A DNA stretch of 64,000 nucleotides from Deltaproteobacteria bacterium (GTDB lineage: Bacteria > Desulfobacterota > Binatia > UTPRO1). Under the pieces are notes generated by a model. That model saw only the letters and a list, made by a program, of their open reading frames with translations. It did no database searches and was not told the origin of the DNA. The stretch spans positions 21,449 to 85,448 of the forward strand of contig JAJCZP010000108.1 in NCBI GenBank assembly GCA_029262315.1, in the 5' to 3' direction. Position 1 is the stretch's first letter; each line of letters opens with the position of its first letter. The position numbers and the translations under genes are program-made. Positions 7,665 through 62,140 of this stretch are shown piece after piece.

Positions 7665-8162
7665 ATGGACGACGCAATCCGCACCGCACGCGACGTGATG
7701 CAAACCAACTTGCTGACAATCTCGGCCGACGCGTCGCTCGTCGAGCTAGAACGGTTTCTGCTCCAACATCAGGTGGGAGGTGCTCCCGTCGTTGACGACC
7801 AGCAGCTCGTTGGGGTCGTCTCGCGCTCGGACATCGTCCGCCAGCTCGATCTCGATCGGGGTCTCGCGGACATCCTGGTGGACTATCAACACGATGGCGC
7901 ACTGCACGCGCCGCGCGCCGCGCTCCGTGAGGACGAATGGATCACGAGCGCCGCAACCGACCACTTCCGTGGCCTGCGGGTGCGCGATGTCATGATCCGG
8001 GACGTGATCACGGCGAGCCCAGATGCGTCCGTGCAGCAGGTCACGCGCACGATGCTCGACAATGGCGTGCATCGTGTCCTCATCACCGAAGATGAATTCC
8101 TCGTTGGCATCGTGACCAGCACCGACCTGATGCGCCTCGTCGTCGAGTACACATCCCGATAG
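7665..8162 (+). CDS. CBS-domain pair protein
   Basis: ARDVMQ..., GAPVVD..LVGVVSRSD, VRDVM, HRVLI..LVGIVTSTD. Confidence 0.92.
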   Translation: MDDAIRTARDVMQTNLLTISADASLVELERFLLQHQVGGAPVVDDQQLVGVVSRSDIVRQLDLDRGLADILVDYQHDGALHAPRAALREDEWITSAATDHFRGLRVRDVMIRDVITASPDASVQQVTRTMLDNGVHRVLITEDEFLVGIVTSTDLMRLVVEYTSR

Positions 8163-8220
8163 CGGGTTGCTGCCCGCCGTCGGTCTCGTCGACGCGATCG
8201 GGGGACGTCGTGTGTACGCC

Positions 8221-10167
8221 TCAGCCGGCGGAGAATGCGAGCTGCACGGCAACCCACCCGAGATGGGCGTCGTAGTCGCGGCCATCGTACAGCCCCTGGT
8301 CGAAGCTGAGGTATGCGTAGCCGCCGGTAAAGCTCAGGCGGTCGTTGACCCGATAGCCGCCGTCGAGGAACAGCCGGTGCGTCAGGTTGTCGAGCGAGCC
8401 GCCCGCGTCGACCAGCGTATAGCGTCCGCCGAGCGTCGTCTGGTCGTTCACGCGATATCGTGCCGCCAGCGCCGTGCTCAACGACCGTCCGCGAAACTCG
8501 ATCGGTGCAAAGGCGCCCAGATCGCGCCGTGGCGTGCCGACCTCGTACTTCCGGTTCACGAACGAGAGCATGCTGGTCACGACCAGGCCCGGTGCGGGGA
8601 CGGTCACGGCACGCAACTGGCCAATCTGCACATTCACGGAGGTCGTGGAATCCCCACCAATGTCCGTCCGCTCGTAGTCCTCGTGCGCGAACTCGCCGCG
8701 CGCTTCGAAAGTCGTGATTCGGCCCCATCGATACCGTCCCCCGAGGAATCCGGTGTGGGTCTCGCGGTGTCGATCCCCCAACGTATACTCGTTCAGGAGT
8801 TCGTCACGGTCCTCGTCGATGTCCTCGCGGCGGTACCGGTACCCGGCCTTGACGAGCAGCGAGCGGTCGGCCCGGATACGCGCCTCGAGCAACAACCGGT
8901 GCACGTCGCGCTTCTGGTCCGTTTCCTGAATTCGATCGATCCCGCTCAGGGGATCGGTGGCAGCCCCGAGCATCGACACGTCGAGATCACGATGTGCGTG
9001 TTCGTACCGATACATCCCGCGAAGCCGGGTCCGCGTCAGGCCCGTATAGCTCACATCCAGACGTGCGCGCTGCCGAGTCAGTTGCTTGTCCGTATCGCTC
9101 TCGACCACGCTCGTTCCACGCCGCCTCGTTTCCGACCCGTCGCCATCGCGATGCTGATCGACGATGGTATAGGTCGTACGAACGCGCAGGTGGCGCGCTG
9201 GTGAGAACGCCAGGCCGCTGTGACCGGCGTGGCTCTGTTGCGTCACGGAGATGCCGTTTGCCGTCCGCTCGAGGACGGAATCTGACTGCTGCGACGCATC
9301 GGCGTCCGCGTCCACCCAATAGTACCGGTAGCCCGCATGTCCGAGCACGTTCCACGTCGTCGGGGTGGCGATGTCGGCCCCCGCGTGCACCGTGGTCGTG
9401 TCGATATCGTCCGTGAAGCGCACGGCCTCCTGCGTCAGGTCGGTACGTACGTTCGTTTGATGCGTGGTGCTGCGACTCGACGCGTCGGTCCAGCCGGCCA
9501 GCAATCGCACATCAAACGGACCGGCCGGAAACACCCCCTCGAAATCGAGGGTATCGGAGCGAGTGTCGATGGCCTGGAACGCCGGAAACCGGAAGGCATA
9601 CGGACTCAAGCTCTCGACGACCGAGGCCTTGAGCAGATTTTCGTCGCCGTCGCTCGCGCGATGCGCGTAGGTGAGGCGCAGGTTGCTACGGGGGCCGAGT
9701 CGCACATCCGCGGCCACATCGGCGTTCGTCCGCACCAGCTCGAACTCCCGCCCCAGCTGCCCGGGCGCCGCTCTGCCAGCACCCGGACGGCGCAGATGAT
9801 CGTCGAAGAAGCTTTGCGAACGGCTGAACGCGCCCGTCAGGGTGTAGAGGCCCCGGCGGCCCCCACGCACATGGATCGTGGCGCCGCCGACGCCGCGGGC
9901 ATCCTCGATACCTTGGATGCTCGCGGCACCCTCGAAGTAGTTGCCACGCTCGTCGTGCCCGTCGAAACGGGTTTCGGCGCCGCCCCCGCTGCCGAGGGTG
10001 TCGTAGTCCTCACGGAATGCGCCCTCGCTCCCATCGACGCCGGTACCGCGCCCGACGGCGCGCCCGGTCATACTCATCGTCCACGTCGACCCATCCGTCC
10101 CGTCGGGCTCCGCGACCACGGAAGCTGGAAGCCCGAGCACCAGGACGACGAGCAGGATCCACATCAT
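8221..10167 (-). CDS. outer-membrane beta-barrel, MtrB/PioB-like porin partner of decaheme cytochrome
   Basis: Signal peptide MMWILLVVLVLGLPASVVA, ~648 aa, alternating amphipathic strands (GYRY, YTIVD, GYAY), near-terminal Phe. ATGA-coupled to the decaheme gene. Confidence 0.78.
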   Translation of the reverse strand: MMWILLVVLVLGLPASVVAEPDGTDGSTWTMSMTGRAVGRGTGVDGSEGAFREDYDTLGSGGGAETRFDGHDERGNYFEGAASIQGIEDARGVGGATIHVRGGRRGLYTLTGAFSRSQSFFDDHLRRPGAGRAAPGQLGREFELVRTNADVAADVRLGPRSNLRLTYAHRASDGDENLLKASVVESLSPYAFRFPAFQAIDTRSDTLDFEGVFPAGPFDVRLLAGWTDASSRSTTHQTNVRTDLTQEAVRFTDDIDTTTVHAGADIATPTTWNVLGHAGYRYYWVDADADASQQSDSVLERTANGISVTQQSHAGHSGLAFSPARHLRVRTTYTIVDQHRDGDGSETRRRGTSVVESDTDKQLTRQRARLDVSYTGLTRTRLRGMYRYEHAHRDLDVSMLGAATDPLSGIDRIQETDQKRDVHRLLLEARIRADRSLLVKAGYRYRREDIDEDRDELLNEYTLGDRHRETHTGFLGGRYRWGRITTFEARGEFAHEDYERTDIGGDSTTSVNVQIGQLRAVTVPAPGLVVTSMLSFVNRKYEVGTPRRDLGAFAPIEFRGRSLSTALAARYRVNDQTTLGGRYTLVDAGGSLDNLTHRLFLDGGYRVNDRLSFTGGYAYLSFDQGLYDGRDYDAHLGWVAVQLAFSAG

Positions 10168-11189
10168 GGGTGCCGTCCCCCGCGGAGGAGCTCCTCGATC
10201 CCGAGCGGACTGAAGTTCTCGTTCGTGTTCGAGCCGTGCACCTCGAAGTGGCAGTCGAAACATCGGGCGCCTGCGGACAAGAAGCCGGTGTGATCGACAG
10301 CGCCGATCAGCGGGAAGTTCGCATCGAAATGGCACTGCTCGCACAGGCCGTTGTCGGCCTGGACCAGGAGCTTCTCGACGACCGAGCCGTGCGGATTGTG
10401 ACAGACCACGCACCCCTCCTCGAGCGCGAAATGCTCGAAGAGGAAGGGCCCGCGGACCTCCTGATGACACTCGAAGCAACGGGCATCATCACCCTCGAGC
10501 TGCCCCCAGCGCGCGGAGGCATGGATGTCGTGGCAATCCGTGCAGCGCATCGTCCCTTCGGCGACGGGATGGTGGTACTGCAAGGCGAAATCGGCGGCGA
10601 CCTCTCCGTGGCACTGCACGCAGAACTCCATCTCGCGTGGGCCCTCCCCCACCGTCACGTGCGGGTCCGCATCGCGATGCGCTGACATCGCCCGCCAGCT
10701 GTACTCGACCACGGGCACGAGTTCCGTCGCCGGGGGACGGGTGTGGAGGGCATCGGCGTGGCAGTCCCAGCACGAGACGCCGGCATCGCCGTGCGCACTG
10801 GCTTCGAACGACCCGGCCTGCCCGCGGTGACAGTCGAGACAGAGTGTCGAGCGCTGCATCGGATCGAGTCCTCGCAAGACGTCGTTCCCAAGAATGTCGG
10901 CGATCTCGAGCGTGTCGACGTGGCGACTTCCCGCCCCGTGACAGACTTCGCAGGAGTGCTCGCGCGTCTGCATGACATGGGCGTGCGGGGTGCCAGCGTA
11001 GGCCTCGAGCGTTTCCTCGTGACACTCGAGGCACGCCGCCGTCCCGGCCATGGTTGCGTTCTCGATGACGGGGATCGGCTGCGGCGCGTCGTCTCGCAGC
11101 AACGGGCACGCGCACAAGGTCGCGAGGCCGAACGCCACACCGACACGTCGGAGACGCCTCCCCATGACCAGCTGGATCAGCTGCCGCAT
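10164..11189 (-). CDS. decaheme c-type cytochrome, MtrA/DmsE family
   Basis: 10 CXXCH (CLECH, CEVCH, CLDCH, CWDCH, CVQCH, CTDCH, CFECH, CVVCH, CEQCH, CFDCH), HHPV.EG.M.C, GPFLFEH, terminal HGSN. Confidence 0.9.
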   Translation of the reverse strand: MRQLIQLVMGRRLRRVGVAFGLATLCACPLLRDDAPQPIPVIENATMAGTAACLECHEETLEAYAGTPHAHVMQTREHSCEVCHGAGSRHVDTLEIADILGNDVLRGLDPMQRSTLCLDCHRGQAGSFEASAHGDAGVSCWDCHADALHTRPPATELVPVVEYSWRAMSAHRDADPHVTVGEGPREMEFCVQCHGEVAADFALQYHHPVAEGTMRCTDCHDIHASARWGQLEGDDARCFECHQEVRGPFLFEHFALEEGCVVCHNPHGSVVEKLLVQADNGLCEQCHFDANFPLIGAVDHTGFLSAGARCFDCHFEVHGSNTNENFSPLGIEELLRGGRHP

Positions 11190-11204
11190 CCGCGCCCGTC
11201 GATC

Positions 11205-12491
11205 CTACAACTCGCTCAACTTCTCCAACGACGCCTCGAGCAGCCGACGCATCCGACTCGGGTTGTGCACGCCGTGACTCTTGTCATTCTCGAAGGTCTC
11301 GAGATTGAAGAGTGCGCCCTGGTACTCTTCGCTACCCCGTTTCGCTTCCGGCACGGCGTCGAGCGCGGTACCTAGTTCGGCCGCCAGCGGATCGATCTCC
11401 GCTCGAAAGGCCGTGAAGATCGTCGCAGTATCGGCGTGACAGTCCGCGCAGTTCGAGAAGTCGCGCTCCTCCGTCGCCTCGTCGATCACCGGAATCGGCT
11501 CGAAGGTGTGTCCGACCTGGGCCGGAATCGGGAACTCGCCTCCCTGAAACGGACGCGTCACGACGTGGCAGGTGACGCAGATATCGGGATTCAGCGTCAG
11601 GTCGCCGTGCGTCGAGGCGCCGGGGAATACCTCGCCCGGGAACTCGAAGCCGGCCTCGCCCAGCAGCACATCACGCTGGGGATGGTGTGGCGTCTCGCCG
11701 ATCATCGTCGGGCCCTGATTGTGGCACTGCCCGCACACGATGGGCTCGTCGCCGACGACGCGTACCTGGTGCTCGTTGCCGTTCCCGTGTGGGTCGTGAC
11801 AGGCGACGCAGTTGATCGGTTCGGGATTGGTGGTGATGATCTGCTCGTCGCCGTCAGTCTCGACGAATCGAATGAACGACTGCGTCACGTGGCAGTACGC
11901 ACACGCGGGGTCGCCGGCGACGTTCAAGCCGAACGCCTGGCCCGAAAGATGGGACTCGGAATGTGCCGACTCCATCCATTCTTCCACAAACGGATGATGC
12001 GCGGCTTGGTGACACTCGCCGCAGCCATCGTTGAGCGACACGGTAATGCTGGCGTCGGGATGATCCTTCACATCGGCGACATGCATCGCCCCCGGGCCAT
12101 GACAGTTCTCGCACTGCACGTTGTGGAGCTCGGCAACGGGAGTTCCGACGAAGCCCGCCATCGGGTCCATGAGTGTGTTCCCGTTCTCGCTGATGTTGTG
12201 ACACGGGGCGCAGGAAAGCTCGGAACTCTCGCGGCCGATCGCGGCCAGCGTGTCGAAAGCTACGGCGTGCCCGGTCAGCGCCCAGCGCCCCTGCTCGTTC
12301 GCATGACACTCCCCGCACTGGGTGACGTTTTGGCTGACGTTCACCAACCCGAGGAAGCCGTCCGGGAACGGACCCGTCTCGGGGCTGCCGTCGCCACTAC
12401 CACCCCCACACTGCCACATCGCCGACGTCATCGTTGCAACGCAGGCAACCACCAACACGCGTCGCCACCACCCAGTCGCTTGCTCGCTCAT
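11205..12491 (-). CDS. nonaheme c-type cytochrome, probable lipoprotein (c554-like N-terminus, GVHNP C-terminus)
   Basis: 9 CXXCH (CGECH, CAPCH, CENCH, CGECH, CAYCH, CVACH, CGQCH, CVTCH, CADCH), signal ending AMWQC-GGGSG, GGAGG SD. Confidence 0.87.
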   Translation of the reverse strand: MSEQATGWWRRVLVVACVATMTSAMWQCGGGSGDGSPETGPFPDGFLGLVNVSQNVTQCGECHANEQGRWALTGHAVAFDTLAAIGRESSELSCAPCHNISENGNTLMDPMAGFVGTPVAELHNVQCENCHGPGAMHVADVKDHPDASITVSLNDGCGECHQAAHHPFVEEWMESAHSESHLSGQAFGLNVAGDPACAYCHVTQSFIRFVETDGDEQIITTNPEPINCVACHDPHGNGNEHQVRVVGDEPIVCGQCHNQGPTMIGETPHHPQRDVLLGEAGFEFPGEVFPGASTHGDLTLNPDICVTCHVVTRPFQGGEFPIPAQVGHTFEPIPVIDEATEERDFSNCADCHADTATIFTAFRAEIDPLAAELGTALDAVPEAKRGSEEYQGALFNLETFENDKSHGVHNPSRMRRLLEASLEKLSEL

Positions 12492-12634
12492 CGTGCGCGT
12501 CCTCCACCTTGCATCCTGAGGGATGTTGCTGCCGACGCATCAGCGTCACTGGCAGTATTCTCTCACATAGATTGTGACACGGCTCGAGTGCAAGAAGAAC
12601 CTGCTCTGAAAAACGAAGTTCTTACTCTTTGGAA

Positions 12635-12650
12635 TTCTCGATCATGGGAA
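12635..12650. promoter_or_regulatory. palindromic operator TTCTCG-N4-TGGGAA
   Basis: Recurring motif, in the AT-richer gap upstream of the nonaheme-decaheme-porin genes. Confidence 0.55.
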
Positions 12651-12665
12651 TTCCGCGCGTCTCCG

Positions 12666-12860
12666 CTACGCTCGCGTGGCAACGGCGTACAGGTAGAGGG
12701 CGATTCCCGCACCCGCGAGCAACGCACCCGCGCCGCCGAACACGATGAACGACAAGGCACCATTCCAGTACAGCGAACCGAGCTCCACGATGAGACCCGC
12801 TCCAACGAGAGTAGCCGCTCCGCGCACACGCCCTGCCAGCATGCGCAACGTCGGACTCAC
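12666..12860 (-). CDS. small two-TM membrane protein coupled to NapC/NirT gene
   Basis: GTGA overlap with the NapC stop; two hydrophobic helices. Confidence 0.7.
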   Translation of the reverse strand: MSPTLRMLAGRVRGAATLVGAGLIVELGSLYWNGALSFIVFGGAGALLAGAGIALYLYAVATRA

Positions 12861-13450
12861 GCTCCTGCTCCATCCGAACTCGCCTCGCCGAGCAGGTGCC
12901 CGACGTCGTGGCAGTCGAGGCAGGACGTCTCATTGGCGGTCAACGCCTCGCGCTCATCGACATGCATGTCGTTCTCCTCGAACGACTTGGCCCCGGTATG
13001 ACAATGGAGACACTCCCGATTGTTGTACGGCCGGTAGAGTTCCAGCTCGTCCGGAATGGTACCGAGATAGTTCACGTACAGATGTAGGAGCCCGCCGAGC
13101 TTCGCCTGGAAATCGCCGAACATGGCGTATGTCGTATGGCACGAGTAGCAGGCCTCATCCGCGTCGATGCGGCGATTCTGGAAATGCTGGGCTGGGAGCG
13201 AGTCGGCATCGTCGACATGCAAACTCTCGCCGTACGGCGTCATCACGTGGCAGGACAGACAGAAGCTGGTCGTCTTCGACTCCTCCAAATGCAGCGAAAA
13301 GCCCCGCGAAAGGGCGATTCCGGGCAGGAGGAACAGGGCGACGAACGCCACTACGCGGCCCGCGACCCTGCCCAGATGGCTCGGCCGCGCAAGCACGAAC
13401 GCAATGAGTCCGAGGTTGAGCAGAATCAGCGCTGTGAGCGTATACTTCAC
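12857..13450 (-). CDS. NapC/NirT (CymA/NrfH-like) membrane tetraheme quinol dehydrogenase
   Basis: N-terminal TM helices, FCLSCHVM (CXXCHXM), CYSCH, CLHCH, CLDCH. Confidence 0.88.
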   Translation of the reverse strand: MKYTLTALILLNLGLIAFVLARPSHLGRVAGRVVAFVALFLLPGIALSRGFSLHLEESKTTSFCLSCHVMTPYGESLHVDDADSLPAQHFQNRRIDADEACYSCHTTYAMFGDFQAKLGGLLHLYVNYLGTIPDELELYRPYNNRECLHCHTGAKSFEENDMHVDEREALTANETSCLDCHDVGHLLGEASSDGAGA

Positions 13451-13469
13451 GGGTCGACCGCCTTCGCCG

Positions 13470-13796
13470 TCAGTTTCCCTTCAATCCGGCAACCCACTCG
13501 GCGATCGCCCCGAGCTCCTCGTCGCTGCCCTTGAAGCTCCCCTTGTGCTTCTTGCCATCGAGCAGCTCCTGCTTGGTCACGAGCCGAACGATCCAAGCGG
13601 CATCATGCTTCGGACTCGCCTCTGCGAGATCGGGTCCCCGCATCTTCTCGGATTTGGCCGTCGCTGTGATACCGTGCGTCGACACGGCATGACATTTGTC
13701 GCAGCCGTACGACACGAAGAGCGCCTGGCCGTCGGCAGCACGAGCGTACCCCGACGACAGGACGATGAAGAGCATGCTTGCAGCGAGGCGTCTCAT
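13470..13796 (-). CDS. monoheme cytochrome c
   Basis: Signal peptide, GQALF..YGCDKCH, GPDL. Confidence 0.85.
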   Translation of the reverse strand: MRRLAASMLFIVLSSGYARAADGQALFVSYGCDKCHAVSTHGITATAKSEKMRGPDLAEASPKHDAAWIVRLVTKQELLDGKKHKGSFKGSDEELGAIAEWVAGLKGN

Positions 13797-13879: not shown

Positions 13880-14905
13880 TCAGCCCGCGCGATCACGGAC
13901 GACGTAGAAGAGGCAATCCTGGACCGCGATGCGAATATCGGTCGTCATCATGATTGGTACGAGCGCGGCGCGGGTCCTCAAACGATCATCGACGATCTCG
14001 AACAGATCGGAGGCGCGATCGTCGCCAGCAGCACCGCGCGCCTCGATTGGTAGCTGGATTGATGGTCGTACCCACCCGAGCACCGTTCCGGCCTCGAGGA
14101 GGGAGAAATTGTGCTGGTCGACACCTGACGTGAGCGTGAGGTCGGCATCGACAGCCGGCGCCTCGGCAAACGCGAGGCGCACGCCCGGTCGCACACCGAC
14201 GCGCATTGGCTCCTCGAACACCTGAAACCCCGAGGGAACCGCATCGAGCGGTAGCCGGACGGCCTCGACGAACCGCGTGAGTCCCGCGAGCGCAATCGCG
14301 TCCGACGCAGGATCACCGGCGCGTCCGCATTCAATGGTCACCGCAGGGAGTTCATCGGCCAAGACCTCGGTCAGGGCGCCAAGGGTCAGATCGCTCAGGA
14401 CCACGCGTTCAGCGAAGAGGGTGACGAGGCCCAACTCGGGGGCGCCAGCGCGCATCGCGACGCCATACGCTGGATTGTGCCCGGTGTTGTTGTGCAGATC
14501 GACCAGCGCCTCCGGGCGTGAACTCCGCACCATGCGGACGATGGCTTCGGCGAGGACGCCCCCGGTACCGACGAATGGCGGACGGAAGCAGCGGTTCAGG
14601 TCGCGCTCTTCTGGCAGCATGCGGTGCGAGAACGCGGGCGGCCGCCGCGCGGCGGCGACAGCTGCAACCACGCAGAGAACATCCACGGCGGGTGTGGGGC
14701 CAGAGCGGAGCCACGAGTGCAGGGCACGCAGACCCGACGGCTCGTTGCCGTGTAGCAGCGTTACGAGCGCGCGCGTGCGTGTTCTGTCACGGCCCGGAAT
14801 CCTGAACACTGTCGGGCCGTCGAGCATGGCGAGAAAGTCCTCGGCGGACGCTCCGACGTCCTCGCGCCTCGGGGCGTCCCTGTATCGAAGCGGCCCCCCA
14901 CTCAC
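13880..14905 (-). CDS. succinylglutamate desuccinylase/aspartoacylase (M14) family hydrolase
   Basis: LHGNEPSG, DLNR, DLHN, IECG. GTGA overlap with the ligase gene. Confidence 0.85.
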   Translation of the reverse strand: MSGGPLRYRDAPRREDVGASAEDFLAMLDGPTVFRIPGRDRTRTRALVTLLHGNEPSGLRALHSWLRSGPTPAVDVLCVVAAVAAARRPPAFSHRMLPEERDLNRCFRPPFVGTGGVLAEAIVRMVRSSRPEALVDLHNNTGHNPAYGVAMRAGAPELGLVTLFAERVVLSDLTLGALTEVLADELPAVTIECGRAGDPASDAIALAGLTRFVEAVRLPLDAVPSGFQVFEEPMRVGVRPGVRLAFAEAPAVDADLTLTSGVDQHNFSLLEAGTVLGWVRPSIQLPIEARGAAGDDRASDLFEIVDDRLRTRAALVPIMMTTDIRIAVQDCLFYVVRDRAG

Positions 14906-16970: not shown

Positions 16971-16976
16971 ACGCGC

Positions 16977-51487: not shown

Positions 51488-51503
51488 TGGTGCGACCTTT
51501 GCT
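51488..51503 (+). promoter_or_regulatory. sigma-54 promoter (TGGTGCG-ACCT-TTGCT)
   Basis: Strong match; heads the USP-PFOR unit. Confidence 0.78.
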
Positions 51504-51516
51504 TCTCAAGAATGAC

Positions 51517-54900: not shown

Positions 54901-55580
54901 TCGGTGGCGATGGATGGGCCTACGACATCGGCTTCGGCGGGCTCGACCACGTCCTCAGTCTGCGCCGCGACGTGAACGTTCTGGTCCTCGACACCGAGGC
55001 CTACTCGAACACGGGAGGCCAACAATCGAAGGCGACCCCGCTCGGCGCCGCGGCGAAATTTGCCGCGGCCGGCAAGAGCATCGCCAAGAAGGATCTCGGA
55101 CTCGAAGCCATGAGCTACGGCCACGTCTATGTCGCTCGCATTGCCTTTGGCGCCCGCGACATCCAGACGGTCAACGCGCTCCGTGAAGCGGAGGCCTTTC
55201 CAGGACCGTCGCTCGTGATCGCGTACAGCCACTGCATCGCTCACGGCTACGATATGGCGCATGGCGCTGAGCAACAGAAGCTCGCGGTCGACTCCGGAAT
55301 CTGGCCGCTCTACCGCTTTGATCCACGGCGCGTCGAAGATGGAGAGCCGCCACTCCATCTCGACTCAGGCGCACCCAAGGTCTCCGTCGAACGCTACATG
55401 CGCAACGAGGCACGCTTTCGGATGGTCGAGAAGCAGGACCCTGCACGTTTCAAGTTGCTTCAGGCGCTGGCCTCACGTGACGCGGAGAGACGGATCGCCA
55501 TCTACCAGCAGCTGGCGGGCTTGAAAGTACCGCGGAGCGACGACCGGACGAAGGAGGATGCGGATCAGTCAGCCGCGTAG
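51990..55580 (+). CDS. nifJ: pyruvate:ferredoxin (flavodoxin) oxidoreductase
   Basis: YPITPS, MQSEGGAAG, two 4Fe-4S motifs, ACAGCGE, ATGCSSI, GGDGWAYDIG, YSNTGGQ; 1196 aa. Confidence 0.96.
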   Translation: MIARRVVALDGNEATALVAHRASEVIAIYPITPSSPMGELADEWSTQGRTNLWGTIPQVVEMQSEGGAAGAVHGSLQAGAMTTTFTASQGLLLMIPNMYKIAGELTAYCMHVAARTIATHALSIFGDHSDVMACRQTGFAMLASCSVQEAHDSAAIAHAATLRARVPFLHFFDGFRTSHEVAPIEALSEDDLSSLIDEPSVRAHRERALTPDKPVLRGTAQNPDVFFQAREAANCFYDACPAIVQEMMDRFAELTGRRYQLFDYAGHPDADRIVVVMGSGADTVRETVEWLVAAGERVGVVTVRLYRPFSVAAFTEALPCSARSIAVLDRTKEPGAVGEPLYQDVVAALVASGRFRDTADLRVVGGRYGLSSKEFTPAMAKAVFDELASSAPRTGFTVGIVDDVTHTSLPVDADFAIESDDTVRAVFFGLGSDGTVGANKNSIKIIAEETDHYAQGYFVYDSKKAGAMTISHLRFGPRPIGCHYLIREASFVACHQFGFLERYDVLAYAAPGATLLLNAPHPPDQLWDHLPREVQEQILEKKLDVYTIDAYRVAGEAGMGRRINTVMQTCFFAISGVLPPDDAIAKIKQTIAKTYGKKGEAVVARNFAVVDTTLAHLHRLAPGTEITASHDRPPMVAEEAPDFVQRVTAVMLANQGDLLPVSAFPVDGTWPTGTSKWEKRNIALEIPVWDDAVCIQCNKCVLACPHAAIRAKVYDVPALEGAPSTFATTDYRASDFKGAQYTLQVAPEDCTGCELCVAVCPAKDKANPRHKAINMAPQGPLREQERENYAFFLSIPEVDRSVVKLDNKGTQFLEPLFEYSGACAGCGETPYLKLLSQLFGDRLLIANATGCSSIYGGNLPTTPYTTNRDGRGPAWSNSLFEDNAEFGLGMRLALDAHIDHDTILLRTLAGQVGETLAEALLTADQSSEAGIAAQRERVAALRVKLRDLEGVDARRLEHLADYLVRKSVWLVGGDGWAYDIGFGGLDHVLSLRRDVNVLVLDTEAYSNTGGQQSKATPLGAAAKFAAAGKSIAKKDLGLEAMSYGHVYVARIAFGARDIQTVNALREAEAFPGPSLVIAYSHCIAHGYDMAHGAEQQKLAVDSGIWPLYRFDPRRVEDGEPPLHLDSGAPKVSVERYMRNEARFRMVEKQDPARFKLLQALASRDAERRIAIYQQLAGLKVPRSDDRTKEDADQSAA

Positions 55581-55586
55581 AACCCT

Positions 55587-56576
55587 ATGGATCTTGCGAC
55601 GACCTATCTCGGCTTCCAGCTCCCGCATCCACTGATGCCCGGGGCATCGCCGCTGATCGAGAATCTCGACACGGTCCGAGAACTCGAGGACGCCGGCGCG
55701 GCGGCGATTGTGATGCGTTCGCTGTTCGAGGAGCAGATCACGGCCGAGCAACTCGGGGCCTTCCACAGCATGGAGTTGCATGCGGGCTCCCATCCCGAGG
55801 CACAGTCGTATTTCCCCGACACCGACGTTTTCGCGCTCGGCCCCGATGAGTACCTCGAGAAGATTCGCCGTATCAAAGAGGCGGTCGCGGTGCCGGTCAT
55901 CGCCTCGCTGAACGGTACGAGCATGGGGGGGTGGTTGGATTTCTCCCGGCGCATGGTCGAGGCGGGGGCCGACGCGCTCGAGCTGAACGTCTACTACCTG
56001 GCGACGGACCCCGACGAGAACGCCGCCATGGTGGAGGGGCGCATCGTCGAGATGCTCCGCGCCGTCAAGGCGCAGGTGCCAGTTCCCGTCGCGGTCAAAC
56101 TCTCGCCCTTCTACTCCGCGCTCGCGCATCTGGCGCGCGAGCTCGATCGTGCCGGTGCCGACGGCCTCGTGCTCTTCAATCGATTTTATCAGCCCGATAT
56201 CGACGTCGAGGCTCTCGAGGTCGATCGTCGGCTGCATCTCTCGGACTCGAGCGAGCTACCACTGCGATTGCGCTGGCTCGCGATCCTCGACGGCCACGTG
56301 CGTGCGTCCCTCGCGTGCTCGGGCGGAGTGCATTCCAGCCTTGACGCCATCAAGGCCGTCATGTGCGGCGCCCATGCCGTGCAGATGGTGTCCGGCCTCC
56401 TCCGGCGCGGGCCGGATCAACTGCGCACGATACGCCAGGAGATCGCGGAGTGGTTGGAGACCCACGAATACGATTCCTTGCAGCAGATGCAGGGCAGCAT
56501 GAGCCTCATTCATTGCCCCGATCCGAGCGCGTACGAACGCACCAATTACACCGAGATCCTTCATACTTGGCGCTAA
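55587..56576 (+). CDS. dihydroorotate dehydrogenase-like FMN protein (nifJ-associated type)
   Basis: MDL.TTYLG, SLFEEQ, IASLNG, VKLSP, FNRFYQPD. Lacks the class-1 catalytic SCP. Confidence 0.88.
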   Translation: MDLATTYLGFQLPHPLMPGASPLIENLDTVRELEDAGAAAIVMRSLFEEQITAEQLGAFHSMELHAGSHPEAQSYFPDTDVFALGPDEYLEKIRRIKEAVAVPVIASLNGTSMGGWLDFSRRMVEAGADALELNVYYLATDPDENAAMVEGRIVEMLRAVKAQVPVPVAVKLSPFYSALAHLARELDRAGADGLVLFNRFYQPDIDVEALEVDRRLHLSDSSELPLRLRWLAILDGHVRASLACSGGVHSSLDAIKAVMCGAHAVQMVSGLLRRGPDQLRTIRQEIAEWLETHEYDSLQQMQGSMSLIHCPDPSAYERTNYTEILHTWR

Positions 56577-56598
56577 GCCGCCCCGCGGAGAGCCTTCC

Positions 56599-58077
56599 AT
56601 GACCGAAGTCGATATCCGATCCGACCAACTGTCCCGGTTCCGCCCGATCGTCGGCCGGCACCGCCACTATCGCGCCGCCAAAATCGCCGAGCTGATTCGG
56701 ACGCGCCTCGAGGGCCGCGCCCTCTGGAACGTCAATACGACTGCCGCCGGTGGCGGTGTCGCCGAGATGCTCCATGTGCTCCTGCCCTACGTTCGCGGCG
56801 CCGGTGCCGATGCCCGTTGGCTCGTGATGGACGGCGATCCGGACTTCTTTCGAGTCACGAAGCGCCTGCACCACGCATTGCATGGCTCGCTCGGTGACGG
56901 CTCGCCTCTGGACGACGACGCGCACGCGATCTACGACGCGTGCGCCCGCGCCAACCTTCCCTACCTCGACCGGGTGCGCCCGCGAGACATCGTCCTGCTC
57001 CACGACCCGCAGACGGCGGGCCTCGCCGCGCCGCTCATGGAGGCCGGTGCGCAGGTGATCTGGCGATGTCATATCGGCCACGACGGGAGGGACGCCGAGG
57101 TGGAGGCGGGATGGCATTTCCTCGACCGCTACCTCCGTGACGTTCCGGCCTTCGTGTTCTCGCGCCGTGCCTACGTGCCGCGACAGTACCAGTCGCGAAC
57201 GACGATCATCACGCCGAGTATCGACGCGTTCTGTCCGAAGAACCAAGAGCTCGACGACGATACCGCGCGCGCGATTCTCGTGCACACCGGGCTCGTCGAG
57301 GGGCCCATGGGTCCCGGATCGCCAACCTTCACACGCAACGACGGCACGTCCGCCGACGTCAATCGCCGTGCCGAGGTCGTCCGGTCCGGGCGAGCCCCGA
57401 GCTGGGACACCCCGCTCGTCGTACAGGTGTCGCGGTGGGACCCCTTGAAGGACATGGCCGGCGTCATGCACGGCTTCGCGCGACTGGCGGAGACCGATGC
57501 TTCGCTCGGGGCGCATCTCGTGCTCGCCGGCCCGAACGTGAGCGCGGTCACCGATGATCCCGAGGGTGCTGTGACCTTCAAAGAGGTCGTCGCCGCCTGG
57601 GGGGCATTGCCCGCCGAGATCAGGGAGCGCGTACACTTGGCGTCGCTTCCCATGGCAGACATCCAGGAAAACGCCGCCATGGTGAACGCACTGCAACGAC
57701 ATGCGGCCATCATCGTGCAGAAGAGCTTGCACGAGGGATTCGGTCTGACCGTGACGGAGGCGATGTGGAAGAGACGCCCGGTCGTCGCCAGCGCCGTTGG
57801 GGGCATTCAGGACCAGATCGTCGACGGGGTGCACGGCGTGCTCCTGCGCGATCCGACCGACCTCCAGGCCTTCTCGGACGCCATGGCCGGTATCCTAGAC
57901 AACGACGAGCTCGCCGCCCACCTCGGCAAGAACGCCGAGGAACGTGTGCGTGAGCGCTTCCTCGGACTCGGGCACCTGGTCAAGTACGCTCGCTTGATCG
58001 ATCGGCTCGACCGCGAACGTGGCGCCAAGCGCCGCGCGCCCGCCCGTCAGACCGACCCGAGCCGTGCCCGTCGGTAG
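56599..58077 (+). CDS. GT4 glycosyltransferase, TreT-like trehalose synthase
   Basis: NTTA.GGGVAEML, HDPQ, WRCH, VSRWDPLKD, QKS..EGFGLTVTEAMWK. Confidence 0.87.
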   Translation: MTEVDIRSDQLSRFRPIVGRHRHYRAAKIAELIRTRLEGRALWNVNTTAAGGGVAEMLHVLLPYVRGAGADARWLVMDGDPDFFRVTKRLHHALHGSLGDGSPLDDDAHAIYDACARANLPYLDRVRPRDIVLLHDPQTAGLAAPLMEAGAQVIWRCHIGHDGRDAEVEAGWHFLDRYLRDVPAFVFSRRAYVPRQYQSRTTIITPSIDAFCPKNQELDDDTARAILVHTGLVEGPMGPGSPTFTRNDGTSADVNRRAEVVRSGRAPSWDTPLVVQVSRWDPLKDMAGVMHGFARLAETDASLGAHLVLAGPNVSAVTDDPEGAVTFKEVVAAWGALPAEIRERVHLASLPMADIQENAAMVNALQRHAAIIVQKSLHEGFGLTVTEAMWKRRPVVASAVGGIQDQIVDGVHGVLLRDPTDLQAFSDAMAGILDNDELAAHLGKNAEERVRERFLGLGHLVKYARLIDRLDRERGAKRRAPARQTDPSRARR

Positions 58078-58092
58078 GGAGCCCGAGGATTC

Positions 58093-58141
58093 TTCGCGGA
58101 ACTGGGAGGCGTGCGTTCGCGGCAGTTCCTGGAATTGAGAT
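58093..58141. promoter_or_regulatory. palindromic operator variants TTCGCG-N4-TGGGAG (58093) and TTCCTG-N4-TGAGAT (58126)
   Basis: Degenerate copies of the recurring motif upstream of a sigma-54 match. Confidence 0.45.
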
Positions 58142-58200
58142 TCCGGGAGTTCCCACGCCCGCATCTCGCGCAACCACGAGCGTCGAGCAGCGGACGATAC

Positions 58201-58216
58201 GGGTACGCTAGTTGCA
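58201..58216 (+). promoter_or_regulatory. sigma-54 promoter (GGGTACG-CTAG-TTGCA)
   Basis: Strong match, 15 nt before ATG 58231. Confidence 0.75.
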
Positions 58217-58230
58217 GTCTCATAGAAGCC

Positions 58231-59127
58231 ATGAGCGATCTTGCGTACACCCCGAGTCCCCGCGTGGCACAGATCGGCTCGATCATCCGTGAGTCGGCAA
58301 GCACCCACACGCTTGTGTTGGTGCTGCAGTCGCCCGCCCCCGAGCTTGACGCAGCGCGTCCTGGTCAGTTCATCGTGGTGTCCGTCTTTGGACACGGCGA
58401 GGCGGCGTTCGTGCTCTCGAGCCTGCCGGGTCCGGGGAGTCTCCCCGGAACGGTGGGATGCGTGCCTGGAAGCGTCGTCGTGACAGTTCGCCGCGCCGGT
58501 GACCTCAGCGCGGCGCTGCTCGACCTCCCCGTGGGAGCGACGGTCGGCGTCCGGGGCCCGTACGGGTGCGGCTTTCCGCGCAGCGATCTCGCGCAGCCGA
58601 CGATCTACGTCGCGGGGGGCTGCGGATTGGCGGCGCTCAAGGCCGCGATCGACCTTCACATCGCGACGCGACCGTTCGCGACCGACATCGCCGTGGTGTA
58701 CGGCGCACGCACCCCGGATGCCCGCGTGCTCCGATCGGCCCTCGAGGCGTGGAGCTACGCCGAGAACGTACTCGTGCTCGAATGCGTGGAGGAGGCTGAT
58801 GACGCGTGGCAAGGCCGACGCGGCACGGTCGTCGACCACCTACCCGACGCGCTCGCCCGGGCCCGGCCGACCCGCGCGGCGATTAGTGGCCCTGCCGCGA
58901 TGCTACGGCCGATTGCGGAGACGCTGATCCGCGCCGGGATCGACGCCTCCCAGGTGCATCTCGCCGTCGAGCACTCCATGGAGTGCGCCACCGGAGCGGG
59001 TGGGCACGACGATCTGAACCACCGCCGCCTGTGTACTGACGGCCCGGTGTTCTCGTATGCCGAGCTACGCGGGCGGCCGGATGCTTTCGGGCCGCCGCCC
59101 GGTCCCAGCACCGCTCTCGCGCGCTGA
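58231..59127 (+). CDS. AsrB/PyrK/hydrogenase-gamma-like FAD/NAD-binding protein with degenerate 2Fe-2S motif
   Basis: PGQF..VSV.G.GE, RGPYG.GF, AGGCGLA, YGARTP, C-terminal MECATGAGGHD..LCTDGPVF. Confidence 0.8.
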   Translation: MSDLAYTPSPRVAQIGSIIRESASTHTLVLVLQSPAPELDAARPGQFIVVSVFGHGEAAFVLSSLPGPGSLPGTVGCVPGSVVVTVRRAGDLSAALLDLPVGATVGVRGPYGCGFPRSDLAQPTIYVAGGCGLAALKAAIDLHIATRPFATDIAVVYGARTPDARVLRSALEAWSYAENVLVLECVEEADDAWQGRRGTVVDHLPDALARARPTRAAISGPAAMLRPIAETLIRAGIDASQVHLAVEHSMECATGAGGHDDLNHRRLCTDGPVFSYAELRGRPDAFGPPPGPSTALAR

Positions 59128-59179
59128 GGGCTCTCGCATCAAGCAGAAATCCGCTACATAGTGCGACGGGGGCTCAGTC

Positions 59180-60475
59180 ATGGCGAATCGTAAAAAGCTC
59201 GCGATCCTCGTGGGTGGCGGGCCGGCGCCCGGCATCAACGCAGTCATTAGTGCCGCGACAATTCGCGCCGTGCTCGGGGGCGTCGACGTTCTCGGCATAC
59301 GCGATGGGTTCGAGTGGATTATGCACGGTGACATCGATCACGTGCGCCCGCTCACCATTCGTGACGTGAGTCGCATCCATGTTCGCGGTGGATCGTACAT
59401 CGGCATCTCGCGCGCGAACCCGACGCGAGACCCGGAGCATCTCGAGAACGTCGTGACGTCCCTGCTCCGACTGAACGTGTCACAGCTGATCACGATCGGT
59501 GGCGACGACACGGCCTTCTCGGCGATGAAGCTCGCGGAGCGCTCCGCCGGGCGCATTCGGGTCGTGCACGTTCCCAAGACGATCGACAACGATCTGGATC
59601 TCCCGCCGGACATCGACACGTTCGGGTATCGGACCGCCCGCCACTTCGGTTCCGAGATCGTGAAGAACATCATGGTCGACGCCCAGACGACGTCGCGCTG
59701 GTATTTCATCATCGCGATGGGGCGCAAAACCGGCCACCTCGCCCTCGGCATTGGCAAAGCAGCCGGAGCGACCGTCACCCTGATTCCAGAAGAGTTCGGG
59801 CCGGATGGCATTCGCCTGAAAGCGATCGTGGACACTCTGGTGGGCGCGATCATCAAGCGTCTCAGCTATGGCCGGCGCGACGGCGTAGCGGTCGTCGCCG
59901 AGGGTGTCGTCCTCGGGATGCACCCCGAGGACATGGCCTACCTCCCCGACGTCGAACGCGATGCGCACGGCAACCTGCGCATCGCCGAGGTCGATATCGG
60001 CGAAACGCTCAAGAAGGCCGTGCAGGTCCGGCTCCGTGAGCTGGAAGTCAAAAGCACCATCGTAGCCAAGAACATCGGCTACGAGCTGCGCTGCGCCGAC
60101 CCCATTCCGGACGATCTCGAGTACACCCGCGACCTCGGGTACTGCGCCGCCAAGCATCTCCTCGACGGCGGCAATGCGTCGATGGTGTCTCTGCAAGGAG
60201 GTCGCTTCGTCGCCGTGTCGTTCGCTTCCATGCTCGATGCAGAGACCGGCCGTGCGCGGATCCGCGCAGTGGATGTCTCGTCCGTCCGCTACGCGATCGG
60301 TCGGCGCTTCATGATCCGACTTCGGCGTGATGACTTCGAGGATCCACACGAGCTTGCGAAGTTCGCCGCAACCGCACGGATGTCCCTCGAGAAGTTTCGC
60401 GAGGAGTTCGAATACCTGATGTCGCTGGAGCCCCCGCAGCTCCAGCTCGAGCCCCCGGAGGCCGCTACCACCTGA
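59180..60475 (+). CDS. pfp: pyrophosphate-dependent 6-phosphofructokinase
   Basis: GGGPAPGIN, GGDDT and PKTIDND (PPi signature), MGR, GYELRC. Confidence 0.88.
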   Translation: MANRKKLAILVGGGPAPGINAVISAATIRAVLGGVDVLGIRDGFEWIMHGDIDHVRPLTIRDVSRIHVRGGSYIGISRANPTRDPEHLENVVTSLLRLNVSQLITIGGDDTAFSAMKLAERSAGRIRVVHVPKTIDNDLDLPPDIDTFGYRTARHFGSEIVKNIMVDAQTTSRWYFIIAMGRKTGHLALGIGKAAGATVTLIPEEFGPDGIRLKAIVDTLVGAIIKRLSYGRRDGVAVVAEGVVLGMHPEDMAYLPDVERDAHGNLRIAEVDIGETLKKAVQVRLRELEVKSTIVAKNIGYELRCADPIPDDLEYTRDLGYCAAKHLLDGGNASMVSLQGGRFVAVSFASMLDAETGRARIRAVDVSSVRYAIGRRFMIRLRRDDFEDPHELAKFAATARMSLEKFREEFEYLMSLEPPQLQLEPPEAATT

Positions 60476-60484: not shown

Positions 60485-60859
60485 TCAGCCTATGGCCGCC
60501 GCCTTGTCCATGATGCAGATGTAGACGCAATCCTGGCGCACCTCGTTGATGTCAACGCCGAAATTTATGATGTTGTGGTTCTGGAGATCTACGAGAATCG
60601 CATGGTTCGGGCAGTGGTAGGTAAACCTAAAGAAAAACTTGTCACCTATCCGATCCAAGATCTGCTCCATGATCTCCATGTCGGTATGCGCGATCTCGCT
60701 CCGACGTTCCTCGAACTCGAGGAAGGGCATTTGAAAGAGGTGCTCGAATGCGGCCGGTAGCGCCTCGGACCCACGGAAGAATGCGGCGATGCTGTCGACC
60801 TCCCAGATTTCGAAGTTCGAATACTGCGAGCATGTCTCTCGGAAGTCCTGAACCAACAT
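60485..60859 (-). CDS. hypothetical protein (lower GC)
   Basis: 124-aa ORF 3 nt after the hemerythrin-like stop; natural amino-acid composition. Confidence 0.65.
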   Translation of the reverse strand: MLVQDFRETCSQYSNFEIWEVDSIAAFFRGSEALPAAFEHLFQMPFLEFEERRSEIAHTDMEIMEQILDRIGDKFFFRFTYHCPNHAILVDLQNHNIINFGVDINEVRQDCVYICIMDKAAAIG

Positions 60860-60862
60860 CCG

Positions 60863-61570
60863 CTACGACCCCTGCGTCGGCGAGACGGCCCGTGTGGGGT
60901 TGGATGCGTCCGACTCGCGCGCAAGACTCTCGAGCTCATCCTCGCTCAAGAACTCCTGCGCCAACGCAAAGGCAATCCGGTCTTCACGGAACATATGCAG
61001 ACGTAGCATCTTGATAAGCGCTTCGCATCGTTCAACCGCGATCGAGAGGACGATCCCTTTCGAAGCGGGATCCTGTAGTCGGTACGCCAGCGCGGAGAAT
61101 CCCATCGCCAGCGCGCTGATTCGTACCGCTTCGATATGCTCCCCCTCGAGGACAGACACCGGGGTCACCGGGTTGGGGCCGCAGCTGTGCTCGCCGCGTT
61201 CCAGCATCTTGCGTCGCAGTATCGGGAATAGCTCCCGCTCTTCACGTCGATTGTGGCCAACCACGTCGGAGTCGAAGTAGTCGAAGAAGACCTTGATCTC
61301 GGCGAATCGTTGTTCCGAGATCTCGCCTTCACGGCGAATCTCGGCGACGAGGGATTCGAGCCGTGCCAGATGCTCGGAATACTGCGCGTGTTCCTCCACA
61401 AACGTCCGGAGGTACGGATGCATGTTCTCCGGAGTCACACCGTTGTTCACTGGCTGCGCGTACTCATCGGGTGGATCGAAGGGCGAGGACCCCTTCTGGG
61501 CATCGAAATCCACGGTGCCCTGCGGGTGCAGGGGGTCGATCTGCTTCAGGCGCTTTTGATCGAGGTCCAT
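60863..61570 (-). CDS. hemerythrin HHE-domain protein
   Basis: EEH, HNRREE..LFP, EGEH, HMFRED; AAGGA SD. Confidence 0.82.
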   Translation of the reverse strand: MDLDQKRLKQIDPLHPQGTVDFDAQKGSSPFDPPDEYAQPVNNGVTPENMHPYLRTFVEEHAQYSEHLARLESLVAEIRREGEISEQRFAEIKVFFDYFDSDVVGHNRREERELFPILRRKMLERGEHSCGPNPVTPVSVLEGEHIEAVRISALAMGFSALAYRLQDPASKGIVLSIAVERCEALIKMLRLHMFREDRIAFALAQEFLSEDELESLARESDASNPTRAVSPTQGS

Positions 61571-61680
61571 CAGGCCATCCTTCTCAAGTCTCCCGAAGAA
61601 AACGGAGGTTGTCGGCTCACGGTTCCCGTTGCGTGGCCTGACACCTATCTATGAGACACCTCAGGGTCTGGCAACACGCC

Positions 61681-61696
61681 TGCAACGGTCCCACCG
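61681..61696 (-). promoter_or_regulatory. possible sigma-54 promoter (CGGTGGG-ACCG-TTGCA)
   Basis: GG-N10-GC with TTGCA; weak -24 half. Confidence 0.4.
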
Positions 61697-61783
61697 ACGC
61701 GTTCCTGCGCCTGCGGTCGCCGGACGAGGTAGCGACAGAGGCGCTCGAGTCGCTACCTGAAAGGATCCGGTGCAGGCTTCCCA

Positions 61784-62140
61784 TCAGGCATCGCCACCGG
61801 GGCGCAGCCGCACGCGCATGGCGCCGTCCTCGCCGCGCGCGTCGGGATCGGGGCTCGCGCTCTCGACCCAACGGTGCCCTTCCTTCGCGAGCCAACGCGG
61901 TACGACTTCGCGGAGAATCCCGTGCCCGCCCGGACTGCCCCGACCCTTTCCATAGATGATGCGCACGTCGCGATGCCCGTCGGTGGCCGCGTCGCGGACG
62001 AAGCGCTCGGTAGCGGCGAGCGCGTCTTTGACACCGAGACCGTGGAGGTCGAGGACCGGGCTCCCTCGTCCGAGCGCCGGGCTCGCGCGCCGAAGGAGCG
62101 CGGTCAGCAGGCGATCGAGTAGATTTCCGAGAGCCGACAT
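61784..62140 (-). CDS. stand-alone Smr/MutS2-domain protein
   Basis: LDLHG, IIYGKG.GS, GILR..V..WL, G.DGA. Confidence 0.87.
   Translation of the reverse strand: MSALGNLLDRLLTALLRRASPALGRGSPVLDLHGLGVKDALAATERFVRDAATDGHRDVRIIYGKGRGSPGGHGILREVVPRWLAKEGHRWVESASPDPDARGEDGAMRVRLRPGGDA

Follow-up and report, generated by a model that had tools for sequence, protein, structure and literature searches.

The question raised by this locus is whether the stress, storage, fermentation and respiration genes that lie side by side in a Binatia genome are under common control and, if so, which signal switches them on. The window, i.e. the whole stretch of 64,000 nucleotides that was analysed, corresponds to G000:C108:21449-85448 (genome G000, contig C108). 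The parent assembly has 5.9 Mb in 298 contigs and is 99.96% complete. The cluster of interest lies within 7.6-62.3 kb of the window and includes about twelve transcription units and about 45-50 genes. The reading that is preferred here, with somewhat more confidence than doubt, is that this bacterium has a sigma-54-dependent regulon for low oxygen (or respiratory limitation) and that the region is its largest cluster. Most operons of the cluster are probably switched on together by sigma-54 promoters and one shared activator site, a 16-bp palindrome.

Gene content and shared promoter architecture

The Pfam scan includes all 283 open reading frames (ORFs) of the window that encode at least 85 aa; the NCBIfam scan includes 51 selected genes. 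Gene starts are those called in this analysis. An initial annotation, made from the letters of the DNA, had listed most of the families found by these scans, and its list was confirmed: two USP genes (47113, minus strand; 51517, plus strand), seven CBS-pair proteins (7665, 16548, 23013 and 31503, plus strand; 26176 and 34009, minus strand; C-terminus of the WS/DGAT protein at 29602, plus strand), two WS/DGAT genes (TIGR02946, 420 and 409 bits, cut-off 310), a type II P-type ATPase, a short HPF, a triple-BON protein, a phosphofructokinase (PFK), TreT, two hemerythrin-domain proteins, PFOR (1745 bits, cut-off 911) and a D-2-hydroxyacid/D-lactate dehydrogenase (D-LDH). The PFK is pyrophosphate (PPi)-dependent (620 bits, cut-off 550) and belongs to the PFK-A family, not to pfkB. 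A 558-aa protein with a C-terminal AAA_33 P-loop domain, a DHODH-like protein, a glutamate dehydrogenase, a Na/H exchanger, nqrA-F with ApbE and one cytochrome/porin operon are also encoded. All members of the listed set lie between 7665 and 62269.

The clustering of these genes is far above chance. The window represents 1.08% of the genome and carries 14 of its 57 CBS-domain matches, 7 of its about 29 CBS proteins and 2 of its about 8 USP ORFs. The region is a gene cluster and not a mobile island, since its GC content is even (0.62-0.69), a tRNA search of the window gave none and the Pfam scans found no integrase among the window ORFs.

The organism clearly uses sigma-54. Its genome includes rpoN, about 25 activator genes and 28 exact-consensus sites (about 5 expected from base composition). 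The -24/-12 consensus used in the searches was assumed to be TGGCAC-N5-TTGCW. Four window sites have at most one mismatch to it (1.24 expected; 2 of 100 shuffles reach 4). All four are located 25-45 nt upstream of in-frame starts, on the correct strand, and precede CBS1, the HhH gene, BON and the GAF kinase. Well-placed sites with two mismatches precede CBS2, hemerythrin 1, USP2 and the small ORF that heads the P-type ATPase/NQR operon. The prediction that sigma-54-type promoters precede most operons of the cluster is supported.

The palindrome TTCNCR-N4-YGNGAA is found upstream of most sigma-54 promoters of the cluster. Nine window promoters have both palindrome and element: P1, P2, P4, P5, P6, P7, P9, the site at 58093-58216 and the receiver site. 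The last of these lies in the 3′ end of the kinase gene, ahead of the receiver. Taken alone and in its first definition (TTCNC-N6-GNGAA), the palindrome is modestly enriched: 5 in the window, 127 in the genome. The signal is clear only once palindromes are paired with sigma-54 elements and compared with decoys. Strict pairs number 23 genome-wide and 6 in the window, versus 3-13 and 0-1, respectively, for nine composition-matched decoy half-sites; a looser pairing rule gives 31 pairs in the genome and 8 in the window. In 759 kb from other Binatia (ten genome neighbourhoods, two TreT regions and eight metagenome contigs), 59 pairs were found for the real motif versus 0-5 for the decoys: the pairing is shared by other members of the class.

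The position and the sequence of the palindrome are constrained. The distances between palindrome and element in the 96 pooled pairs cluster at 29, 40-41, 50, 61-63, 70-72 and 80-82 nt, i.e. with a period of about 10.4 nt; 124 decoy pairs are evenly spread. Two positions that the search left unconstrained are biased (position 6, R in 84/96; position 11, Y in 92/96). That this predicted enhancer-like palindrome ties the operons into one predicted regulon is supported.

A footprint of the same architecture is found in the metagenome contig L023, whose AAA_33 protein is 74% identical to that of the window. Gene order is kept within the 21.6 kb analysed of this 255-kb contig (DHODH-like, PFOR, BON, HPF, AAA_33, reductase, USP, small ORF, nqrAB, nqrC-F). 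Its BON/PFOR intergenic region has diverged, yet both outward sigma-54 elements are retained, as are the palindrome (with an altered spacer sequence) and a second block, TTGC-N7-GCAA.

Other relatives carry the same modules in other arrangements. The AAA_33 protein was found in 251 of 401 genomes of the class (E<=1e-60; best identity 61%; the tally includes eight unpublished genomes). CBS or USP genes are present in 9 of 10 of its 40-kb neighbourhoods, several of which also include HPF, kinase and receiver, WS/DGAT or cbb3 genes. TreT was found in 8 of 61 genomes, G000 included, at E<=1e-30; it is full length in only three relatives, where the order recurs only as fragments. The largest aggregations found are those of G000 and L023. 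The regulon is predicted to be class-wide, its members being loosely clustered and re-assorting.

Candidate activator, sensor and signal

No activator gene is present in the window. The neighbourhoods of the relatives include 14 NtrC-type genes, of which 9 encode proteins 65-77% identical to that of G000:C43:5849-7222. This protein has Response_reg, Sigma54_activat (1.3e-69) and HTH_8 (Fis-type helix-turn-helix, HTH) domains, and GAFTGA is found in its translation. Orthologues are encoded by 4 of the 5 genomes searched (66-81% identity; next-best paralogues, 46% at most). The best 80 loci include Binatia-type orthologues (57-79% identity) and paralogues (48% at most), the closest relatives among them (73-79%) being labelled Candidatus Binatia or, in older naming, Deltaproteobacteria. 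A CBS gene (C43:7285-7734) lies directly upstream of the activator gene and is itself preceded by a palindrome located 29 nt before a weak element. Within C43:1597-7734 (L124), the activator gene is co-oriented with cytochrome c, Rieske, cytochrome b and multiheme cytochrome genes downstream. At 30 orthologue loci of species genomes, the gene directly upstream encodes a PAS kinase in 14 and a CBS protein in 7. The NtrC-type C43 protein is the likely activator of the regulon. An NtrC-type activator encoded by the contig of the window itself (C108:11831-13351) was rejected: the neighbourhood activators map to C43 and are not orthologous to the C108 one.

The candidate sensor is the PAS-PAS histidine kinase of the cluster. 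Its best NCBIfam match is FixL (2.9e-61, below the cut-off). Its second PAS domain matches the heme-PAS domain of FixL (PDB 1D06, 5.7e-16), and the proximal His of FixL is aligned in this domain (PDB 1D06, 8JS5). The neighbour of the kinase is a bare receiver, which is single-domain in relatives too. Protoglobin (PF11563) gave 0 matches in the 99.96%-complete genome.

The cbb3 oxidase is a classic target of low-oxygen regulators. The main argument for oxygen limitation as the signal is that the predicted regulon includes this oxidase. Elsewhere in G000, the palindrome and sigma-54 architecture is found ahead of the cbb3 locus (C238), of a divergent gene pair (C46) and of a C177 locus. The C238 locus includes a DsbD_2 gene, ccoN, ccoO and genes for a P-type ATPase, a USP-CBS fusion and a cytochrome c; NnrS and a third WS/DGAT are encoded beside it. 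One gene of the C46 pair (C46:5323-7112, L096) encodes a di-iron (ferritin-like) protein, the other a regulator of the FNR/CRP family that has N-terminal cysteines. Both lie behind sigma-54 elements with one palindrome between them, and in G023 such a gene pair again adjoins TreT-PFK. A palindrome-promoter pair also heads a cbb3 cluster in G012, a genome of another genus; this cluster is located at most 20 kb from CBS, activator, USP-CBS and AAA_33 genes.

The following mechanism is proposed. The FixL-type heme-PAS kinase of the cluster would sense falling oxygen, or a related gas or redox signal, and would control the NtrC-type activator. The activator would bind the single 16-bp palindrome on one helix face, with 29 to about 120 nt between this site and the -24/-12 element downstream, and would open the sigma-54 promoters, so that the operons may be induced together. 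The predicted output includes high-affinity respiration by cbb3 (from the other locus), a variant Na+-NQR with the P-type ATPase, pyruvate fermentation (PFOR, D-LDH), PPi-dependent glycolysis, triacylglycerol or wax storage, trehalose synthesis, ribosome hibernation by HPF and many nucleotide-sensing CBS and USP proteins. The adjoining MtrCAB-like conduit would serve as an electron outlet.

Several observations weigh against this proposal. Among sequencing runs that contain this DNA, three DNA runs of one study were found and no RNA run. The activator is encoded by another contig and would be linked to the palindrome by association only; no orthologue of it was found in G006 (68% complete), which carries 7 palindrome-promoter pairs. 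A single dimer site near the promoter (centre at about -62) is unusual for NtrC-type activators, and NmpR needs two. Five of the nine paired window promoters have two mismatches and one has three, so that individually they are weak. Good sigma-54 sites at 21903 and 62356 have no palindrome. The position of Arg220 of BjFixL, presumably the distal Arg important for oxygen discrimination, is occupied by Leu in the PAS domain of the kinase, so that the ligand may not be oxygen. The description of the whole region as sigma-54 driven holds for most operons, as judged from the elements, the decoys and the L023 footprint; the cytochrome/porin, kinase, hemerythrin-2 and GCS2/AstE units have no element in a scan that allowed up to 3 mismatches. 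Nor is the region of about 55 kb a conserved block, as its description as one unit had implied: the synteny check across Binatia found long synteny only in L023 and re-assorted modules elsewhere in the class.

Among the alternatives, the one that retains most weight, although it is unlikely, keeps the regulon and replaces the trigger: general energy or growth-arrest stress (adenylate charge, starvation, stationary phase) would act instead of oxygen, and the many CBS and USP proteins and HPF would form a generic dormancy programme. CBS, USP, HPF, BON, triacylglycerol storage and trehalose are indeed general stress or dormancy functions, and a CBS gene leads the activator operon. Oxygen limitation is better suited by PFOR, D-LDH and the hemerythrins, by the cbb3 oxidase that the predicted regulon includes in two genera, and by the FixL-type heme-PAS kinase in the cluster, a kinase being found beside the activator at the 14 loci mentioned above.

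It is improbable that the signal is nitric oxide (NO), carbon monoxide (CO) or a nitrosative or redox stress, the heme-PAS kinase being a gas or redox sensor and the output a protection of respiration and Fe-S proteins. The Leu at the Arg220 position would fit, as would NnrS at the cbb3 locus and the weak match of hemerythrin 2 to the RIC Fe-S repair family (2e-8, far below the cut-off). DosS and DosT respond to NO and CO as well, according to PMC3721108. The Pfam scans of the window ORFs found neither NO reductase nor detoxifying flavohemoglobin, and the cargo consists mostly of fermentation, storage and hibernation genes.

A still smaller chance is given to the palindrome being the operator of the FNR/CRP-family regulator G000:C46:6402-7112 and not of the NtrC-type activator. 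Its 5-6-5 geometry resembles that of CRP/FNR sites; the regulator has N-terminal cysteines and its own palindrome and sigma-54 element upstream, and a homologue (51% identity) is encoded next to TreT-PFK in G023. However, an orthologue was found in 0 of 5 Binatia genomes that have 3-7 palindrome-promoter pairs each (26-34% relatives in two of them), the phasing runs relative to the -24/-12 element, and sigma-54 promoters require an AAA+ activator. The idea that chance or lineage-specific rearrangement brought the operons together and that the motif matches are noise is hardly credible: block synteny is not conserved and many elements have two mismatches, but the decoy controls, the helical phasing, the biased unconstrained positions, the L023 footprint and the correct placement of all four near-consensus sites disfavour it.

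Operons of the cluster and the adjoining MtrCAB-like genes

The left part of the region begins with P1 (7565..7636, plus strand): palindrome TTCCGAGTCTTGAGAA at 7565-7580, then 40 nt, then an element with one mismatch at 7621-7636, located 28 nt before the ATG of CBS1 (7665). CBS-pair protein 1 is encoded at 7665..8162 (plus strand; Pfam CBS, 7.5e-29).

The next unit, on the minus strand, is the MtrCAB-like operon (8221..13796). In the direction of transcription, it encodes a monoheme cytochrome c (13470-13796; 1 CXXCH), a NapC/CymA-type tetraheme cytochrome (12857-13450; 4 CXXCH), an unannotated small membrane protein of about 65 aa (within 12500-12856, between the NapC-type and 9-heme genes), a probable lipoprotein with 9 hemes (11205-12491; 9 CXXCH), a decaheme protein, putatively of the MtrA/DmsE type (10164-11189), and a putative porin that resembles MtrB/PioB (8221-10167). 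The decaheme protein has 10 CXXCH in 341 aa and scores 191.0 bits against the DmsE family (TIGR03508; cut-off 192.2). The outer cytochrome has 9 hemes in 428 aa. The 648-aa porin itself has no match to PF11854 (MtrB_PioB) at E<=1; of five full-length homologues (52-78% identity), four reach 25-42 bits for a cut-off of 23.

The porin-cytochrome conduit described in the initial annotation is present as a cytochrome/porin operon, but it lacks a sigma-54 element within 3 mismatches and has only a 9/10 palindrome (12635-12650). Its membership of the predicted regulon would rest on adjacency and on relatives. In G146 (L119:1693-14037), a palindrome-promoter pair lies beside AAA_33 and is followed by genes for a decaheme-like cytochrome, a 655-aa unassigned protein, Rieske, cytochrome b and two large multiheme cytochromes. 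This arrangement indicates that multiheme/Rieske modules do associate with the predicted regulon in relatives. Genes for AstE/AspA-like and GCS2-like proteins (13880..16398, minus strand; weak Pfam matches, 1.9e-6 and 1.3e-6) lie upstream of the cytochrome operon and share its strand.

P2 (16475..16535, plus strand) includes palindrome TTCTCACCCGTGAGAA, a 29-nt spacer and a sigma-54-like element with two mismatches. It precedes an operon (16548..21786, plus strand; Pfam) that encodes CBS2, a 702-aa protein, a ROK sugar kinase and a 585-aa mannose-6-phosphate-isomerase-like protein (match to PDB 1QWR, 7.8e-11). The 702-aa protein has no Pfam, NCBIfam or PDB match. This operon may feed a sugar or a compatible solute back into glycolysis. 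The sigma-54 element without palindrome at 21903-21918 (plus strand, one mismatch) precedes the HhH gene (21944-22948, plus strand), whose product resembles the N-terminal part of PolX: only the HhH_8/HhH_5 part is found, the polymerase and PHP domains being missing. CBS3 (23013-23636, plus strand; Pfam) follows.

The P4 operon (23684..27326, minus strand; Pfam) encodes hemerythrin 1, CBS4, an SDR protein and WS/DGAT 1. Its promoter has the palindrome at 27311-27326, then 53 nt, then an element with two mismatches at 27242-27257. The PAS-PAS histidine kinase and the stand-alone receiver (Pfam) are encoded next (27362..29558, minus strand).

P9 (plus strand) has its palindrome at 29503-29518, then 72 nt, then a weak element with three mismatches at 29591-29606. 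A CCGCAC-N5-TTGCG string located 42 nt after this palindrome was not counted, the -24 GG being missing. The P9 operon (29503..32989, plus strand; Pfam) encodes a WS/DGAT-CBS fusion (29659-31524, probable TTG start at 29659), CBS6 (31503-31937, Pfam), a 170-aa protein without assigned family and a c3-type cytochrome. The fusion recurs in G035 (48% over 612 aa) and L015 (52%); it may synthesize storage lipids under gating by adenylates. In the PDB, CBS6 is best matched by the CBS subunits of large complexes (9zni, 9zng, 9znf; 6e-19).

The P5 operon (33017..43302, minus strand) has the palindrome at 43287-43302, then 121 nt, then the element at 43150-43165. It encodes an 86-aa coiled-coil protein, a P-type IIA ATPase, an NqrA-NqrB fusion, NqrC, D, E and F and, in its 3′ part, a small ORF (from 34564 downwards), taken here to be nqrM-like, then CBS7 and ApbE. 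The products of nqrA, D, E and F score above the equivalog cut-offs, that of nqrC passes TIGR01938 and ApbE was identified by Pfam. The initial annotation had described the NQR as modified, and indeed it is, as judged from the ORF and its alignment: nqrA and a shortened nqrB (about 270 aa versus 415) form one ORF (37871-40186, minus strand), and the alignment to NqrB of V. cholerae skips the segment with the SGAT motif, which belongs to the loop with covalent flavin mononucleotide (FMN) and presumably includes the FMN-binding Thr. The nqrAB fusion is also found in L023 (72% identity over 712 aa).

P6 and P7 have a common control region (51411..51458), with the perfect palindrome TTCCCAAAAACGGGAA at 51443-51458 and the TTGC-N7-GCAA block, kept in L023, at 51411-51425. 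This block, located between the divergent BON and USP2 promoters, may bind another factor. The P6 element (51346-51361, minus strand, one mismatch) lies 45 nt before the BON ATG at 51300. The P6 operon (43357..51361, minus strand) encodes BON, HPF, the AAA_33 protein, an FNR-type reductase and USP1; after a 137-nt gap past USP1, the Na/H exchanger, the glutamate dehydrogenase and D-LDH follow on the same strand. No sigma-54 element with up to 3 mismatches was found upstream of the Na/H exchanger gene. A PDB sequence search with the AAA_33 protein gave no match.

The P7 element (51488-51503, plus strand) is located 29 nt past the palindrome and precedes the USP2 ATG (51517). The P7 operon (51488..60475, plus strand) encodes USP2, PFOR, the DHODH-like protein, TreT, an FNR-type Fe-S reductase and the PPi-PFK; the site at 58093-58216 (plus strand) is a possible internal promoter. 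Hemerythrin/RIC-like protein 2 and a 124-aa protein without assigned family are encoded at 60485..61570 (minus strand), with no sigma-54 element. At the right edge, a sigma-54 element with one mismatch (62356-62371) precedes the GAF histidine kinase (ATG 62404; unit 62356..63936, plus strand). The region upstream of this kinase (62230-62371) has a different dyad, GTGTGCCA ... TGGCACAC, suggesting a separate activator. The GAF kinase probably belongs to a separate circuit.

Relation to described low-oxygen regulons

The initial annotation knew of no described system with this combination. The NmpR regulon of Myxococcus xanthus (McAllister et al. 2025, PMC11841059) is a described counterpart. 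NmpR is an autoregulated NtrC-like regulator encoded behind a CBS gene; it acts on sigma-54 promoters, and its targets include CBS and USP proteins, a P-type ATPase with cbb3, HemN-hemerythrin and its own kinases. Hypoxic induction was demonstrated there for one promoter. Both systems have an NtrC-type regulator with sigma-54, a regulator operon led by a CBS gene and CBS, USP, cbb3, P-type ATPase and hemerythrin targets, those of the Binatia bacterium being predicted from its DNA. A heme-based kinase on top and a receiver-only protein are likewise found in the NmpR pathway; here, a candidate heme kinase and a bare receiver are encoded.

The differences concern enhancer, sensor and cargo. The NmpR enhancer is GCGCA-N5-TGCGC, two sites of which are 14-15 bp apart, whereas the Binatia promoters have one TTCNCR-N4-YGNGAA in register. 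The NmpRSTU sensor is the protoglobin kinase NmpU, acting via the hybrid kinase NmpS, and the system also has the REC-REC protein NmpT, whereas a PAS-PAS kinase and a single REC are encoded here. The NmpR regulon includes 7 promoters and 23 genes, as stated there; the Binatia cluster alone has about 9 promoters and about 45 genes. PFOR, D-LDH, WS/DGAT, TreT, HPF, NQR and cytochromes are cargo beyond that of NmpR. Likened by domains and context, the Binatia system would be a sigma-54 oxygen regulon of the NmpR type, several-fold larger than that of NmpR, in which the enhancer is new, the sensor is of the FixL type and the very large cargo resembles that of DosR.

The likeness to the DosR (DevR) regulon of Mycobacterium tuberculosis was assessed by families, using the DosR gene list in its generally known form. 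The families in common are USP, CBS pair, WS/DGAT, type II P-type ATPase, HPF-like and Rv2004c-like P-loop proteins; CBS6 matches Rv2626c in the PDB (1.3e-9). The DosR sensors are heme kinases, and heme binding is predicted for the Binatia kinase. Convergence with DosR therefore stands for the shared families and not for PFK and the trehalose genes, which are mere analogues (PFK-A versus pfkB; TreT versus OtsB). Neither the alpha-crystallin nor the nitroreductase of DosR is encoded in the window. DosR is a LuxR-type regulator acting at sigma-70-type promoters, whereas no GerE/LuxR HTH domain was found by Pfam in the 283 window ORFs and the GAF kinase has its own sigma-54 promoter. According to PMC3721108, hypoxia, NO and CO induce the DosR regulon, which has at least 48 genes.

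The same source (Sass et al. 2013) describes the lxa locus of Burkholderia cenocepacia, its Anr/Fnr-like TGA-N6-TCA motif and its overlap with DosR. The likeness lies in a cluster of about 50 genes that low oxygen activates; it encodes several USPs, a sugar kinase and a cation ATPase and belongs to an aerobe that has to persist without oxygen. The control differs: an Anr/Fnr-like motif in lxa, sigma-54 promoters here. The canonical FNR box TTGAY-N4-RTCAA was found 0 times in the window, 0 times at the cbb3 locus and 16 times in the genome. The FixL-FixJ-FixK cascade of rhizobia resembles the Binatia system by a FixL-homologous PAS kinase and by cbb3 oxidase as a target. It differs by the neighbour of the kinase, which is a bare receiver in Binatia and not of the FixJ type (LuxR HTH), by the lack of FixK boxes and by the sigma-54 output. 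The cytochrome operon shares with MtrCAB, PioAB and MtoAB the order of a probable lipoprotein multiheme cytochrome, a putative MtrA/DmsE-type decaheme protein and a putative MtrB/PioB-like porin of about 650 aa, with NapC/CymA-type tetraheme and monoheme cytochromes upstream. It differs by its outer cytochrome (9 hemes, 428 aa) and by a porin that misses the Pfam model though most homologues pass.

No description of such a regulon in Binatia was found in the literature searched, supplements being outside its scope; the main text of the Binatota genomics paper (PMC8262859) does not mention cbb3, hypoxia, universal stress, fermentation or sigma.

Binatia have so far been described as aerobic methylotrophs and alkane degraders. 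A broader view, which is tentative and held to be less likely than the regulon itself, is that of a class-wide sigma-54 'hypoxic persistence' programme of Binatia. It would include at least 60 genes under one activator acting on a single phased dyad, and would, on loss of oxygen, combine a rewiring of respiration (cbb3, the NqrA-B fusion NQR without FMN loop, Rieske/cytochrome b modules, an outward MtrCAB-type conduit) with triacylglycerol storage and ribosome hibernation. If this is true, extracellular electron transfer belongs to a dormancy regulon.

Three features would be of biochemical interest: the WS/DGAT-CBS fusion, the NqrA-NqrB protein without FMN loop and the multiheme conduits paired with predicted hypoxia promoters in relatives. 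The system suggests that sigma-54, together with an enhancer-binding protein, can run a DosR-like dormancy gene set, and that enhancer and sensor may be unlike those of NmpR, the one case characterised. For Binatia, which are uncultured and widespread in soil and sediment, it would provide a concrete model of survival after oxygen loss: a candidate sensor, a likely activator, a predicted enhancer and a list of targets.

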